From: an uncultured Candidatus Saccharibacteria bacterium
Lineage (GTDB): Bacteria > Patescibacteriota > Minisyncoccia > UBA6257 > UBA9933
Assembly: GCA_964398445.1 (NCBI GenBank)
Contig: CAYNMK010000002.1
Span: 1-32,786 of the forward strand
Direction: 5' to 3'
DNA: 32,786 nucleotides
This document shows, in pieces, positions 379 to 5,958 of this stretch. The first letter of the stretch is position 1. Each line of letters starts with the position of its first letter. A model generated the notes under the pieces. That model made no database searches, was not told the origin of the DNA, and saw only the letters and a program-made list of their open reading frames with translations. Made by a program: the position numbers and the translations under genes.

Positions 379-543
379 AACAGGTTGAGACAAATTTTTA
401 ATTAAGGGCGTATGGTGGATGCCTTGATATCAAATGGCGATGAAGGACGTGGCGTGGCTGCGATAAGCCTCGGTGAGGTGCTTAGCAACCTATGACCCGG
501 GGATTTCCGAATGGGGAAACCCTCTGCGGTAAACCCGCAGAAC

Positions 544-605
544 CGTGTCTCGCTTTTGTTCGACACTTATAAATTGGAATAAGTGGTAAATAAAAGTGAG
601 ACACG
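544..605 (+). repeat. 23S hairpin insertion/expansion 1 (helix 9-10 region)
   Basis: cgtgtctc...gagacacg stem. It contains the recurring motif gtgtctcgcttttgttcgacac and is longer than the corresponding E. coli segment. Confidence 0.45.
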
Positions 606-658
606 GAGCGTACCCGCTGAAGTGAAACATCTCAGTAAGCGGAGGAAAAGAAAAAAAT

Positions 659-838
659 CGTTTGCGCCTCACTGCGTTTGGCACAGACTAAAACCAAAGG
701 TAAAAAATAAAAAATTAAAAATAAAAATGTAAAAACGGAAAAATGTTTTTAGGTTTTAGGAATTTTTGATTTGTATTTTTTATTTTTAATATTTAATTTT
801 TGGTTTGAGTGAGTGTTGAGCATAGTGAGGCGCAAGCG
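659..838 (+). repeat. 23S hairpin insertion 2 (~E. coli nt 215 region)
   Basis: It interrupts ...gaggaaaagaaa...|...attccccaagtagcggcgagcgaa. gcgcctcact (664-673) pairs with agtgaggcgc (824-833). The ~80-nt AT-rich arms pair with many G-U positions. Confidence 0.7.
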
Positions 839-877
839 AATATTCCCCAAGTAGCGGCGAGCGAAAAGGGAGGAGCC

Positions 878-1047
878 CAAACCTAACCATACCTCACTGC
901 GTTCGGTATGGAATTATTTAATTTTTAATTTTTAATTTTTATTAAATTTTTAATGTTTTAATTTTCAAACATTAAGTCATTCATTAGAAATTAGAAATTG
1001 AAAATTAGAAATTCTACCCGAGCATAGCGAGGTGTGGTTGGGGGTTG
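878..1047 (+). repeat. 23S hairpin insertion 3 (~E. coli nt 270 region)
   Basis: Basal pairing is aacctaaccatacctc / gaggtgtggttgggggtt. The 5' arm has (aattttt)3 and the 3' arm has (attagaa)n, paired through U-G wobbles. Confidence 0.7.
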
Positions 1048-1392
1048 TAAGAATTTCACGCTACTTTACTAATCGCAAAGTTCCTGTTTATGGGATTTTG
1101 TGATTTGTGAAGCAAGAAAAGGTTACAAAATTATTTGTTAGCTGAATTTATTGGAAAGTAAAACCAAAGAAGGTGATAGTCCTGTAAGCGAAAACGAATG
1201 ATCCTTTTAGTGAAGTATCTTGAGTAACTCGATGACAGAATACTTCGAGTGAATCATCCGGCACTATCCGGAAAGGCTAAATACATTTGATAATCGATAG
1301 CGAATAGTACCGTGAGGGAAAGGTGAAAAGTAGGCCGGCAAGGCCGTTGAAATAGAACCTGAAACCATATGCTTACAAGGAGGCGGAGCTTT

Positions 1393-1545
1393 GTGTCTCA
1401 CTTTTGTTCGACACCGAATTTTTAATTTTTAATTTTGAATTTCTAATGAATAATTAAATGATTTAATGTTTAAAGCATTAAGTTGTTAGAAATTAGAAAT
1501 TAAAGAATTAGAAATTGGAACGAGTGGCGAGCGAAAGCGAGACAC
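1393..1545 (+). repeat. 23S hairpin insertion 4 (helix 25 region, a classical IVS site)
   Basis: It sits between ...caaggaggcggagc and agtgacgctgtgcc. The base is gtgtctcacttttgttcgacac ... gcgagacac, with an AT-rich periodic distal hairpin. Confidence 0.7.
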
Positions 1546-1654
1546 GGAGTGACGCTGTGCCTATTGAAGAATGAGCCAACGAGTTTATGTATATCGCTAG
1601 TTTAAATCTTATGAGATGAAAGCACAGGGAAACCGAGTGTTAAAAGCGCGTATA

Positions 1655-1814
1655 CCGTTGCTGTCGCAACGGAAATCCTAAATCCAAAATCCTAAACCCT
1701 AAACAAATCCAAAATTTTAAATCCAAAATTCAAAACAATTTTTTGGATTTAATGTTTAAATTTTATTTAGGATTTAGAGTTTAGAATTTAGAGTTTCCGC
1801 TGCGGTAGCAGCGG
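1655..1814 (+). repeat. 23S hairpin insertion 5 (domain II, ~nt 640 region)
   Basis: Mini-hairpin ccgttgctgtcgcaacgg (1655-1672), then a long hairpin of cctaaat/ccaaaat 7-mers paired with ggattta/gagttta units, then mini-hairpin ccgctgcggtagcagcgg (1797-1814). Confidence 0.7.
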
Positions 1815-3197: not shown

Positions 3198-3319
3198 TGT
3201 GGGCCGCAGCGAAAGTATCCCTGGCGACTGTTTATCAAAAACACAGCTCCCTGCGAACTCGTAAGAGGATGTATAGGGGGTGACGCCTGACCGATGCGAG
3301 AAGGTTAACGGTGGCAGTC

Positions 3320-3450
3320 TTGTGTTTCGCACTTAGTTTATGAGTTTCGCTTCATTACAGTTTAATGAGTTATTGAGTTTTAATTGATTAAACTACAGTG
3401 AGCGGAACGAATGTAACTCATTAATTCATAAACTGGGTGCGGAGCGCGAG
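3320..3450 (+). repeat. 23S hairpin insertion 8 (domain IV, ~nt 1860 region)
   Basis: It is flanked by ggcagtc / gactgcc pairing. gtgtttcgcac on the left and gtgcggagcgc on the right enclose a hairpin of gagtttN 7-mers. Confidence 0.65.
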
Positions 3451-3525
3451 GCCGACTGCCCGAAGCCCTCGTCAATGTCAGCAGTAACTATAACTGTTCT
3501 AAGGTAGCGCATTTCCTTTCCGGGT

Positions 3526-3907
3526 AAGGTGGAACTTGCCCCTTTTCGCCGCGAGGTGAATCGAAGAAGTCAGCTTATAACGGTGAAGCCCTAATTCTTT
3601 AATGATGTATTTTGTGATATTATATAAAGAATGGGTAATACCGTGGGAAGCCTAACTAGTGCTGTCGCACAAGTGACTAACGATAAATGACCTATGACCA
3701 ACGACAAAAAAGTTGTTAGTCGTTAGTTGTGAGTCGTAAGTTGCTCGCGCGGAGCAGTGGTAATGGCCCTGTAACGACTTAGGCGAAAGCCTTAATAATT
3801 CTTTTTTAAGAATTATTATACGCTGACCACTTAACTTAAATTATAAATAATTTAAGTTAAGTTGAAGATATAGTCTGATACTTATCGTGAGATAAGCAAA
3901 CATATAG
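3526..3907 (+). mobile_element. Group I intron 1 in 23S (after U1951, E. coli numbering; no ORF)
   Basis: The exon junction restores ccgggt|aagttccgg. The 5' exon ends in T and the intron ends in G. The internal guide aactt-gccc (3533-3541) pairs with the 3' exon aagtt (P10) and the 5' exon gggt (P1, with a U-G pair). Core motifs present: cttataacggtgaag, taataccgtgggaag, ccctgtaacgactt, aagatatagtct. Confidence 0.85.
3656..3760 (+). repeat. Hairpin element inserted in a peripheral loop of intron 1
   Basis: Mini-hairpin gtgctgtcgcac, then a hairpin of gactaac/gataaat/gacctat/gaccaac 7-mers, then tgctcgcgcggagca...gtgg. It occupies the same intron position as the HEG ORF in intron 3. Confidence 0.6.
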
Positions 3908-4404
3908 AAGTTCCGGAGCGCACGAAAGGCGTAACGACTGGGGAACTGTCTCAACGAGGAGCTCGGTGAAAATGCAATTCCCGTGAAGATGCGGGATACC
4001 TACAGCAAGACGAAAAGACCCCGGGAGCTTTACTGTAGCTTGATATTGATTTTAAAATTTTGATGCGTAGCGTAGTGGGGAGGCTTTGAAACTTTACTTT
4101 CGGGTAAAGTGGAGCCGCCAATGAAACACCCATCGTTAAAATTTTAAAATCTAATCTAAATGGCAAAAACATTTGGAGACAGTGTTTGGTGGGCAGTTTA
4201 TGTGGGGCACATTCCTCCTAAAAAGTAATGGAGGAGTTTATTAAGGTTGGCTTGGCCCGGATGGAAATCGGGCTGGACGTGTAAAGGCAAAAGCCAGCTT
4301 AACGGCAAGGCCGACAAGCCGCGCCGATGCGAAAGCAGAACTTAGTGACCCGACCATTCTTTATAGAAAGGTGGGAGACAACGGATAAAAGCTACCCCGG
4401 GGAT

Positions 4405-4686
4405 AGAACCTGAAATAAGGTTTTGTTGTCCTCCTCATAGTAATGTGAGGTAAAAAATGCGACTTATAACGGTGAAATCAAAATTGGTCTTCCCTGGAAA
4501 CAGGTTTTAGGATTTTGGTAATACCGTGGGAAGTCTAACCACTGCGGAGCAGTGGCAATGACCCTGTAACGACTTAATCTAAGAAGATTGGATGGTAGTT
4601 TTTAAACTATCATAATACGTCGCGCCCATTAAAGTTTTTTTAATGGGAAAAGATATAGTCTAATCATTCGCAAAGCGAATAGATTG
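4405..4686 (+). mobile_element. Group I intron 2 in 23S (after U2449; no ORF)
   Basis: The junction restores ggggat|aacaggctg. The guide gtt-gtcctc (4425-4433) pairs with the 3' exon aac and the 5' exon ggggat, with a U-G pair at the splice site. It has the same core motifs as intron 1 and ends ...agattg. Confidence 0.88.
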
Positions 4687-4821
4687 AACAGGCTGGTTGC
4701 GTCTAAGAGTTCATATCGACGACGCAGTTCGGCACCTCGATGTCGGCTCATCACATCCCGGGGGTGGAGAAGCTCCCAAGGGTTTGGCTGTTCGCCAATT
4801 AAAGTGATACGCGAGCTGGGT

Positions 4822-5648
4822 GAATTAATCCAAAAATGAGCCCAGCAAAAATTGACTCATAACGGTGGAGTCCGAATGCTTAAAGTGTTAAAATTTAAGT
4901 AATGGATAATACCGTGGGAAGATTACAATCTTTATTTTCACCACATCAATTTGATGTGATTATTGGATCATTATTAGGAGATGCACGACTTGAATGTCGT
5001 TCAATTGGATTAAGACATTCAATTACCGCACGATTCAGAGTGCATCATGGAGAAAAACAAAAAGATTATGTTTTTTGGAAATACGAAATTCTTAGAAGTT
5101 TAGTAATAAAAGAGCCTCAGAAAAGTATATGGAATAATCCAAAAAGAAATATTCAAGAAATTTCTTGGTATTTTCATACGAAAAGCTTAAAAGAATTTGG
5201 TGTCATTTATAGATATTTCTATAAAGACAACATTAAGATTCTTCCAAAAAATTTATTTAATCTACTTACTCCTAGAATGATGGCAATATGGTTTATGGAT
5301 GATGGCTCAAATACCAAAGAAAGCTTTACGTTAAATACGCATAGTTTTTCAGAAAAAGAGCAATTACATATAGTTGATTTTCTAAAAAACAATTATAAAA
5401 TTATAGCTACTTTAGTAAAAGATAGAAATAAATTTAAAATCAGAATTAATAAAAGTAGCTATCAGAAATTCGTAAACATTATTAAGCTATTTATTATTCC
5501 TTCTATGATTTATAAGATTGATAATCCCCGTAACGACTTGTCATATAATATGACAGAGTTGCCTTATTAAAGGCAGTTAACACGTCAGCTCCGACTTAAC
5601 ATCGGAGAAGGTATAGTCTAATGCTATTAGTAATAATAGAGAATATTG
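4822..5648 (+). mobile_element. Group I intron 3 in 23S (after U2584/2585, in the peptidyl-transferase loop), carrying a LAGLIDADG gene
   Basis: The junction restores gctgggt|tcagaccgtcgtgagacagg. The guide tga-gcccagc (4837-4846) pairs with the 3' exon tca and the 5' exon gctgggt (7 bp, U-G pair at the splice site). Core motifs present: ctcataacggtggag, taataccgtgggaag, ccccgtaacgactt, aaggtatagtct. Confidence 0.88.
4902..5570 (+). CDS. Double-motif LAGLIDADG homing endonuclease (intron-encoded)
   Basis: 222-aa ORF inside intron 3. It has two LAGLIDADG-type motifs, IIGSLLGDARLE and IWFMDDGS. Confidence 0.85.
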   Translation: MDNTVGRLQSLFSPHQFDVIIGSLLGDARLECRSIGLRHSITARFRVHHGEKQKDYVFWKYEILRSLVIKEPQKSIWNNPKRNIQEISWYFHTKSLKEFGVIYRYFYKDNIKILPKNLFNLLTPRMMAIWFMDDGSNTKESFTLNTHSFSEKEQLHIVDFLKNNYKIIATLVKDRNKFKIRINKSSYQKFVNIIKLFIIPSMIYKIDNPRNDLSYNMTELPY

Positions 5649-5958
5649 TCAGACCGTCGTGAGACAGGTTGGTCTCTATCTGCTGTAGGCGTTGACGCTT
5701 GAGGGAAGTTGACCCTTGTACGAGAGGATCGGGTTGAACGAACCTCTGGTCTACCGGCTTTACCACCAGGTGAATTGCCGGGTAGCTATGTTCGGAAGGG
5801 ATAAGAGCTGAAAGCATCTAAGCACGAAGCCCCTCCCAAGATTAGGCGTCTTAGATTGGTCGAAGACTACGACCTTGATAGGCTTTAGGTGTAAGCATAG
5901 TAATATGTTTAGCCGAGAAGTACTAATAAATCATATTTTTTTGTTTCTATCTAAATTT

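Follow-up and report, generated by a model that had tools for sequence, protein, structure and literature searches.

Conserved hairpin cassettes and group I introns interrupt a 23S ribosomal RNA gene of a candidate phyla radiation bacterium

The first 6 kb of contig CAYNMK010000002.1 (assembly GCA_964398445.1), of which the 32,786 nucleotides (nt) analysed here are called the window, contain a 23S ribosomal RNA (rRNA) gene of a bacterium of the candidate phyla radiation (CPR). About half of this single gene consists of insertions, namely three group I introns and eight long hairpins. A 23S gene interrupted in this way, with introns of which one encodes a homing endonuclease, is known CPR biology. 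The new part is formed by the hairpins, which are not independent of one another; judged from their sequences, they are members of two families with conserved ends, here called T1 and T2. We interpret them as cassettes of the intervening sequence (IVS) type within a genuine CPR 23S gene, which would be cut by an RNase III-type enzyme to yield a fragmented 23S rRNA, and which would be copied at the DNA level. We put the probability of this interpretation at roughly 0.55. A preliminary description of the same locus had listed the eleven interruptions, and had overlooked that the hairpins are paralogous and that both families reach beyond 23S and beyond this genome.

The locus is, judged by its alignments, a genuine 23S gene of a bacterium of the Paceibacterota (CPR/Patescibacteria), and the CPR setting proposed earlier is supported. 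The Rfam model LSU_rRNA_bacteria (RF02541) matched window positions 392-4898 over model positions 1-2925, with 1682.7 bits against a gathering score of 50; the 3' end of this match is forced and lies ~1 kb too early, and positions 5694-5850 still match models of the large-subunit (LSU) rRNA. In a blastn comparison with the 23S gene of Escherichia coli (positions of which are denoted by Ec), twelve colinear blocks ran from window position 403 (Ec12) to window position 5930 (Ec2887). Furthermore, helix 1 can be read from the sequence as a pairing of GAGACAAA at 387-394 with UUUGUUUC at 5940-5947. Because of the colinear blocks and the helix 1 pairing, we place the gene at ~387-5947 on the forward strand, with a length of ~5,560 nt; the span of 383-5951 (~5,569 nt) suggested before was thus nearly the same. 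Over 2,717 shared columns, the 23S core is 91.0% identical to that of locus L007 and 89.8% identical to that of locus L011, both on Paceibacterota contigs, and 65.3% identical to that of E. coli. Removal of all inserts leaves ~2,900 nt, in agreement with the earlier estimate.

Boundaries of inserts and introns were taken from a four-way E-INS-i alignment of the window, L007, L011 and E. coli. The E. coli coordinates of the inserts were computed, and the helix names are those that we take to apply on the E. coli map. In eight regions that E. coli lacks, the sequence folds into a long, almost perfect hairpin with a GC content of 0.24-0.39. All eight hairpins of the preliminary description are present, with a total of ~1,160 nt compared to the ~1,180 nt given there, and two further copies can be added, one in the 5' leader of the gene (256-376) and one nested in intron 1 (3656-3760). 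All features described in this paragraph lie on the forward strand. Ends of the T1 type are canonical in insert G (2332-2473; helix 45, Ec ~1163-1184; nhmmer scores 40.2 and 30.6) and insert H (3017-3197; helix 63, Ec ~1712-1762), and diverged in inserts F and I. Insert F (1655-1814; Ec 652/653) is a T1-like cassette, CCGTTGCTGTCGCAACGG ... CCGCTGCGGTAGCAGCGG, which is homologous to the copy in L007 and has a terminal mini-hairpin with compensatory changes. Insert I (3319-3450; tip of helix 68, Ec ~1868-1874) is a degenerate T1-like hairpin, at a site where L070 and L078 carry T2 copies. Ends of the T2 type are found in insert E (1393-1545), a cassette in the loop of helix 25 (Ec ~542-548) where L007 has only a GCAA loop; in insert A (545-604), a short hairpin that replaces a native hairpin of ~25 nt in relatives (Ec ~150-176); and in the leader copy, GTGTCTCATTATTGTTCGGCAC ... 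GTGGTGATCGGTAGTGAGACAC, which was recognised from its repeats, its fold and its alignment to other T2 copies. The site of insert A carries T1 or T2 copies in other genomes (L073, L058, L062, L016). Inserts B (658-842; 185 nt, in a linker at Ec ~231) and C (892-1034; 143 nt, extending a native helix at Ec ~271-278) have ends of another type, T3. T1 and T2 copies occur at the site of B in L058 and L066. Insert H itself contains an insertion, a GC-rich hairpin of 35 nt (GCCCCGTAGTGAATGCGAAGCATTCTATTGCTGGGG) at 3115-3149 in its 3' arm.

Inserts had earlier been placed at ~270 and in helices 9, 25 and 45. At ~270 there is one insert (C), whereas the rest of that stretch is a clade-native helix (D, 1064-1113, forward strand), which L007 and L011 have kept, with compensatory changes, and which is not a cassette. 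A stem-loop that replaces the tip of helix 9, 25 or 45, as in classical IVSs, was found for E in helix 25 and G in helix 45; insert A is a hairpin adjoining helix 9, and the remaining five inserts are at non-classical IVS sites. L007 and L011 carry inserts at the F and G sites only, and have short native hairpins elsewhere, or nothing at the site of B. Six of the eight inserts are therefore lineage-specific gains.

The relatedness of the hairpins is already apparent within the gene. Inserts C, G and H are 71-88% identical over 93 nt, C and G have an exact 29-mer in common, and E has the same arms. Moreover, the same arm type is joined to T1 as well as to T2 or T3 ends within the window. Element motifs occurred 15, 6 and 3 times in the window, versus 0.37, 0.15 and 0.00 expected occurrences, and all but two of the single-mismatch matches to the AT-rich arm repeat were inside the rRNA gene or its leader. 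Motif scans of the other 26 kb of the 32.8-kb window found no cassette copy. Convergent growth of low-complexity sequence in situ is ruled out by the 71-88% identity among C, G and H, by the exact 29-mer of C and G, and by identical ends across phyla. As for known RNA families, Rfam returned only sub-threshold plant microRNA precursors for the inserts (23-39 bits versus gathering scores of 85-211), which we regard as generic noise from AU-rich hairpins. In most inserts the sense strand folds much more stably than the antisense strand (-72 versus -40 kcal/mol in H, -66 versus -31 in I, and -75 versus -48 in B). This advantage stems from G-U pairs, and hence selection at the RNA level is involved.

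Both families recur in many CPR phyla. T1 cassettes have the ends CCAGUGCUUCGCACUGG...CCANNGCGGAGCNNUGG, and T2 cassettes the ends GUGUCUCACUUUUGUUCGACAC...GGCGAGCGGUAGCGAGACAC. One scan of the GTDB species genomes with the T1 5' module CCAGTGYTTCGCACTGGAR yielded 52 loci. Of these, ~35 were CPR loci from at least 10 phyla, with hosts among the Saccharibacteria, Parcubacteria, Kaiser-, Peregrini-, Terry-, Uhr-, Moranii-, Sungii- and Nealsonbacteria, Kazan and Paceibacterota. At all CPR loci, AU-rich periodic arms came after the 5' module, with CCANNGCGGAGCNNTGG located 95-190 nt downstream. The non-CPR matches (Acetobacter, Pseudomonas and others) are without these arms and are unrelated. For T2, JGI metagenomes were scanned once with the 5' module; of the 16 loci obtained, all except L080 carry the partner ...GGCGAGCG(G/A)(T/A)AGCGAGACAC 126-205 nt downstream. 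T1 and T2 occur together in single 23S genes (L029, L033), and an inner core is common to both families (UUCG(A)CAC(U)GGAA / UUCC...GCGRRGC). The T3 ends of inserts B and C were not found in any other fetched locus; T3 was therefore rejected as a third widespread family, and is treated as a local, window-specific variant of T2. With phage carriage in mind, the viral_contigs collection was searched as well, and contained no exact T1 matches. Two metagenome-assembled genomes (MAGs) labelled 'uncultured Gammaproteobacteria bacterium' (L020 and L031; GC content 0.35-0.37) have RNase P RNA genes with a typical T1 cassette. Either their label or binning is wrong, or the cassettes also occur outside CPR.

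The copies that could be placed are confined to stable-RNA genes, their leaders and a spacer. Contexts were assigned by mapping the flanks to E. coli and Rfam, and a few copies near contig ends stayed unplaced. All CPR copies with an assigned context were in 23S, 16S, ribonuclease P (RNase P) RNA, a spacer between two transfer RNA (tRNA) genes, or leaders. In 23S they occupied at least 11 sites, and all eight sites of the window gene held T1 or T2 in one or more other genomes. Copies in 16S were located in the helix 6 region and at Ec ~149-177, those in RNase P RNA at three sites, with two copies in one gene in L024, and those in leaders preceded 16S, 23S or RNase P RNA. Among the fetched loci that could be placed, no copy was seen in any protein-coding gene. 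Furthermore, all assigned copies ran in sense with their host RNA; the search pattern matched only once in antisense (L030), where it had hit a GAA-looped 3' module belonging to a copy that is itself in sense. In the spacer, which belongs to L043, the T1 cassette is located at 7398-7495, between tRNA genes at 7321-7394 and 7499-7570. RNase P RNA genes with T1 were seen in many CPR phyla (L020, L024, L039, L019, L031, L045, L056, L049 and L014). They are lengthened to 520-670 nt by the insertion, as a result of which several of them fall below the Rfam gathering score (77-97 bits versus 100), with a partial match of 47 in L014. Lui et al. 2021 described 'large extensions of helices' in CPR RNase P RNAs, and made no link to rRNA.

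We aligned the ends of 39 distinct T1 copies and found them best described by two terminal mini-hairpins of 7 bp (CCAGUGC-UUC-GCACUGG and CCANNGC-GNA-GCNNUGG), which flank a long central arm. In this three-hairpin model 93.0% of the cells were paired, a value reached by none of 500 shuffles, and register-slid controls gave 26-39%. The 3' mini-hairpin was 97.8% paired, with double changes at three pairs (AU/GC/GU, AU/GC/CG and UA/CG/UG) in 6, 19 and 10 sequences, and columns 21/30 and 23/28 were U-G in 17 of the 39 sequences. An extended single-helix model is broken at those covarying columns, and its pair 14/37 is unpaired in 26 of the 39 sequences; the extended form is possibly an alternative conformer. 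Variant 5' mini-hairpins covary too (CCGATGC/GCATCGG, CCGGTGC/GCACCGG and, in insert F of the window, CCGTTGC/GCAACGG). The T1 ends are predicted to form a four-way junction together with the host helix. The core of the T1 mini-hairpin, GCGNAGC, matches the motif that Hirao et al. reportedly described as an 'extraordinarily stable DNA mini-hairpin'. For T2, an alignment of 18 sequences supports a basal stem of ~22-24 bp (GUGUCUCACUUUUGUUCGACAC / GGCGAGCGGUAGCGAGACAC) that was 85.8% paired. Compensatory changes affect at least three of its pairs, and an A.C and an A.G mismatch are conserved as non-canonical positions. In both families the termini are conserved inverted repeats, the two ends being near-inverted copies of each other.

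Arms behave differently from ends. Arm identities, computed without the end modules, were as high as 0.97 (L029), 0.97 (L007) and 0.96 (L058) between copies of the same genome. The within-genome values also include 0.91 between 23S helix 25 and 16S in one MAG, 0.88 between two RNase P copies, and 0.83 between a 23S copy and an RNase P-adjacent copy. In total, 7 of the 18 within-genome pairs had an arm identity of at least 0.77, as opposed to a median of 0.53 and a 95th percentile of 0.68 between genomes. Orthologous sites in close relatives carry different arms, as illustrated by insert G of the window and of L007. From the conserved ends and from the comparison of identities within and between genomes, we conclude that the ends are under strong purifying selection, and that the arms are fast-changing and homogenised per genome. 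Similarity between unlinked genes of one genome requires a process at the DNA level, either transposition-like copying or gene conversion. A genome-wide miniature inverted-repeat transposable element (MITE) is ruled out for the window by the absence of copies in the outside 26 kb, the lack of a target-site duplication and the sense-only orientation. The open reading frames (ORFs) of the window, scanned against Pfam, contain no transposase (e.g. RAYT/Y1 HUH), and their sole recombinase is XerC-like (20277-21206).

The three group I introns, all on the forward strand, have exactly the lengths given in the preliminary description. Intron 1 (3526-3907; 382 nt) is inserted after U1951 of the E. coli gene, with exon U3525 and terminal G3907; intron 2 (4405-4686; 282 nt) after U2449, with exon U4404 and terminal G4686; and intron 3 (4822-5648; 827 nt) after U2584, with exon U4821 and terminal G5648. 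Each of them follows a U of the 5' exon, has G as its last nucleotide and occupies a conserved rRNA position, as is typical of group I introns. The Rfam group I model RF00028 gave 53.2 bits for intron 1 (match placed at 3516-3897), versus a gathering score of 50, 45.7 bits for intron 2 (E 4e-10, under the gathering score) and 18.9 bits for intron 3, where the score is low because an ORF splits the core. The introns have the core blocks CTTATAACGGTGAAG, GGTAATACCGTGGGAAG, CCCTGTAACGACTTA and AGATATAGTCTAAT in common, and by this comparison they are related to one another. The ORF of intron 3 (4902-5570, forward strand) encodes a LAGLIDADG_2 homing endonuclease (PF03161, E 2.7e-44, residues 18-190 of 222 amino acids). 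Its start (ATGGATAATACCGTGGGAAG, 4902-4925) overlaps a conserved intron core block, and the ORF reaches the next core block near 5525, so that the coding sequence extends into the ribozyme core on either side. Both junctions of intron 3 were confirmed independently by Logan contigs from two sequencing runs, which were found via the LAGLIDADG ORF, are only 0.9-1.0 kb long, and are 100% identical to the window.

Related introns occur in the relatives: L007 has an orthologous intron of 281 nt at 2449, and L011 has an intron at 2584 with its own LAGLIDADG_2 ORF. The 23S gene of L011/L012 (2540-9130) is ~6.6 kb long, with four introns (Ec 1931, 2262, 2500 and 2584), a further insert at 2593 and three LAGLIDADG ORFs; its hairpin of 267 nt at Ec 652 is unrelated to T1 or T2. 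The cassettes have invaded introns too. The hairpin nested in intron 1 of the window is a complete T1-like copy in a peripheral loop. At the equivalent place, intron 2 has a solo T1-type mini-hairpin, CCACTGCGGAGCAGTGG (4539-4555), which is identical to the 3' module of insert H and may have been left behind by a cassette since lost. In the L007 orthologue of intron 2, this place is taken by an unrelated hairpin.

A misassembly from internal repeats, or a decaying pseudogene, could in principle produce a gene of this appearance. The gene does have repeats of up to 93 nt, which might confuse assemblers, and around the rRNA region the Logan contigs of this organism are fragmented. We nevertheless regard an artefact or a dead gene as very improbable, since the core aligns end to end with the E. 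coli 23S gene with every domain present and matches that of relatives at 90-91% identity, independent assemblies reproduce the window at 100% identity over 4779-5823 and 5807-10254, the same cassettes occur at the same sites in independent genomes, and the hairpins show compensatory changes. In addition, the flanking signals are intact. A processing stem of 27 nt, 93% complementary, was detected as an inverted repeat with its 5' strand at 226-252 and its 3' strand at 5958-5984, both read on the forward strand; the two arms are 5,705 nt apart and bracket the entire 23S gene. The leader cassette sits between the 5' strand of this stem and the mature 5' end (~387). Upstream of the leader, a promoter-like site on the forward strand (TTGACA-16-TATACT, 57-84) matches the consensus at 11 of 12 positions, which is a match to consensus and not evidence of function. 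Between this site and the processing stem, a terminator-like hairpin with a T-run is located at 163-192; it may mark where an upstream unit ends, or serve as an attenuator within the rRNA leader.

In the interpretation that we favour, the cassettes, lying in sense orientation within the pre-23S rRNA, would fold autonomously, as their predicted folds suggest, so that the two ends of each cassette meet and the host helix still forms. The introns would probably self-splice. The AU-rich central arms, with 40-70 bp of double-stranded RNA, would be cut by an RNase III-type enzyme without religation, by analogy with classical IVSs. The mature 23S rRNA would then be held together as up to ~9 fragments, on which the GC-rich end modules might, more speculatively, stay as exonuclease-resistant caps. 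At the DNA level, the within-genome similarity suggests that cassettes would be copied or homogenised between sites and genes (23S, 16S, RNase P RNA), and only copies at tolerated helix tips of stable RNAs would persist. We favour fragmentation because of the precedent of IVSs, because copies occur in leaders and spacers that are removed anyway, and because CPR rRNA insertions are reported to be absent from transcripts (Brown et al. 2015, as cited in PMC9297842).

Alternatively, the hairpins could be expansion segments that are retained as long surface helices of an unfragmented mature 23S rRNA. Several of the sites, in the H25, H45, H63 and H15/16 regions, reportedly coincide with sites of eukaryotic expansion segments. 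The hairpins fold autonomously with RNA-level selection on the sense strand, and helix D is an example of a retained and conserved clade-specific helix. However, arms of 40-70 bp of AU-rich, near-perfect double-stranded RNA would be an ideal substrate of RNase III. The arm sequence is completely replaced between close relatives whose 23S cores are still 90-91% identical, and leaders and a tRNA spacer, parts that are discarded, carry these cassettes too. The transcript comparison cited above (as cited in PMC9297842) also speaks against retention, and CPR ribosomes are otherwise reduced (PMC9297842). Retention is therefore considered unlikely.

True splicing is another alternative, in which a dedicated endonuclease would read the end modules and an RtcB-type ligase would reseal the rRNA to an intact 23S. 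It would account for end modules that are kept in sequence across phyla far beyond structural need, and for the defined four-way junction that T1 ends are predicted to make with the host helix. To our knowledge, protein-dependent splicing of hairpin inserts has no bacterial precedent. Archaeal-type splice motifs are ruled out, as the predicted hairpin bases show symmetric 1x1 mismatches only and no bulge-helix-bulge, and a candidate endonuclease or ligase was not identified. According to the citation in PMC9297842, Brown et al. 2015 took the insertions as 'introns' from a comparison of genes with transcripts; a short-read comparison of this kind cannot tell ligation from fragmentation. We regard splicing as quite improbable.

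Several points weigh against the favoured combination of RNase III-type fragmentation and DNA-level copying. The window ORFs scanned against Pfam include RNase J, PNPase and an NYN-domain protein, and no RNase III. Nine fragments, some of them of 45-50 nt, would be unusually many for a bacterial 23S rRNA. The end modules vary less between phyla than cleavage by RNase III is known to demand. This suggests that they have a specific partner, which could be a nuclease or an enzyme acting at the DNA level; the invariance of the 5' module is partly by construction, because most T1 sequences were chosen by an exact match to it. With respect to copying, the flanks differed at every site and showed neither a target-site duplication nor a conserved target motif, and the within-genome similarity could come from gene conversion instead of transposition.

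Repetitive extragenic palindromic doublets that form hairpins (REPINs, of REP-RAYT systems) and hairpin MITEs such as the Neisseria Correia elements resemble the cassettes in that the whole element is a hairpin with conserved ends and a variable middle and that copies within a genome are similar, and each T1 end is itself a small palindrome. Transcripts of Correia elements are substrates of RNase III. In contrast to the cassettes, which are sense-only in stable-RNA genes and make no duplication, REPINs and MITEs are extragenic and occur in both orientations, and MITEs make target-site duplications. Expansion segments of eukaryotes and Asgard archaea, and the mycobacterial H54a, likewise are extra helices that grow from the tips of surface helices, partly the same helices as here. 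They are retained and evolve with the rRNA, whereas the arms described here turn over between relatives and are shared among unrelated genes of one genome.

Classical 23S IVSs are known from Salmonella, Yersinia, Campylobacter, Leptospira, Coxiella and alpha-proteobacteria, and are excised by RNase III. Like the inserts of the window, they are AU-rich stem-loops that replace the tips of helix 9, 25 or 45, are mostly without ORFs and patchily distributed, and leave the rRNA core unaffected. Their outcome is a fragmented 23S rRNA, and by analogy the same may be expected here. Unlike them, the window gene has eight inserts, with five additional sites, and the inserts belong to two families with ends of ~20 nt conserved across phyla, which also occur in 16S, RNase P RNA, leaders and a tRNA spacer. 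The 23S gene of Coxiella burnetii, with an IVS in H45 and the group I introns Cbu.L1917 and Cbu.L1951, is similar in combining IVS and introns in a reduced genome, and shares the intron site 1951 with the window gene; it has three interruptions, as opposed to eleven here. Unlike the hairpins of the window, the Coxiella IVS carries an ORF (PMC4990558).

The same phenomenon is known from CPR themselves, with several rRNA insertions per 23S gene (PMC9297842, PMC11270868). As in the window gene, group I introns lie in the 3' half and frequently encode LAGLIDADG endonucleases (sites 1917, 1931, 1952, 2593 and others), and short non-intron insertions without ORFs are found at H25 and H45. In the survey of Tsurumaki et al. 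2024 (PMC11270868), 284 of the 348 CPR 23S genes (82%) had insertions of at least 100 bp, with a mean total of 1,327 bp (standard deviation (SD) 1,112), a maximum of 5,750 bp and up to 16 insertions per gene. In total, 45% of the insertions were group I introns, concentrated in the 3' half. Similar figures were given by Tsurumaki et al. 2022 (PMC9297842). By the same 100-bp criterion, the window gene has ~10 insertions of ~2.6 kb in total, ~1.2 SD above the CPR mean, and is at the high end of the known CPR distribution. Several of the fetched CPR 23S genes have 7-8 inserts at the same hot spots (Ec ~130-154, 223-231, 268-279, 529-544, 1157-1174, 1698-1704 and 1854). With up to 16 insertions and 5,750 bp in other genes (PMC11270868), the earlier view that eleven interruptions are extreme is not supported; heavy interruption in itself is expected for CPR, of which this gene is one more example only.

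Short insertions are left 'uncharacterized' or called 'probably IVS' in these papers, and the word 'hairpin' is absent from the main text of the 2024 paper. Seen here and not in the two papers are conserved end modules, families common to several helices, copies in RNase P RNA, sense-only orientation and within-genome homogenisation. A literature search of incomplete coverage yielded no account of T1 or T2, of their occurrence in RNase P RNA and 16S, of the orientation bias or of the homogenisation, and, with the same incomplete coverage, no CPR ribosome structure. A literature search by exact sequence found nothing.

The remainder of the window, which has an overall GC content of 0.34, consists of ordinary bacterial genes (including RNase J, a class I W/Y aminoacyl-tRNA synthetase, NusA, PNPase, GyrA, S1 and ClpP). 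A 5S rRNA gene follows the 23S gene at 6110-6219 on the forward strand (RF00001, 61 bits). Its match covers 110 nt only, and a short 5S form has been reported for Parcubacteria (PMC9297842). The first protein gene after 5S (6261-7313) has a PG_binding_1 domain (Pfam). Its longest ORF begins at 6180, within the 5S gene, and the ATG at 6261 is more likely the true start. Syntenic homologues of PG_binding are labelled Candidatus Paceibacterota, Parcubacteria and Wolfebacteria, and the order 23S-5S-PG_binding is also present in the contigs with the closest homologues (L007, L011). Further downstream, the gene of the NYN-domain protein (a PIN-like RNase; 19310-19843) adjoins that of PNPase (17035-19155) and is followed by the XerC/D-type tyrosine recombinase (20277-21206), with tRNA-Leu (21562-21643, reverse strand), RNase J (10783-12480) and NusA (15803-17023) nearby. 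Four consecutive small ORFs on the reverse strand at 23730-25630 are all T4SS_pilin (PF18895), and form a tandem array of paralogues.

The short 'uncharacterized' insertions of CPR appear as a few sequence-conserved, structured cassette families common to rRNAs and RNase P RNA in many CPR phyla. In a broader and more tentative form, which we hold to be possible although not probable, CPR would carry portable hairpin cassettes of at least two families, T1 and T2, that are restricted to stable-RNA units, always lie in sense orientation, and spread or are homogenised between unlinked genes, with ends of ~20 nt that are read by a dedicated RNA-processing nuclease or by an enzyme of the HUH type acting on single-stranded DNA. 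If this were true, rRNA and RNase P RNA would generally be heavily fragmented, or spliced by an unknown pathway, throughout a large part of the bacterial tree. The conserved motifs make it testable, with existing metatranscriptomes and cultivated Saccharibacteria, how CPR insertions are removed, whether the ribosomes are many-pieced, and what spreads the cassettes. Moreover, the motifs are of use in annotation, where standard models miss or truncate CPR rRNA and RNase P RNA genes, as well as in the design of primers and probes and in the assembly of CPR rRNA operons.

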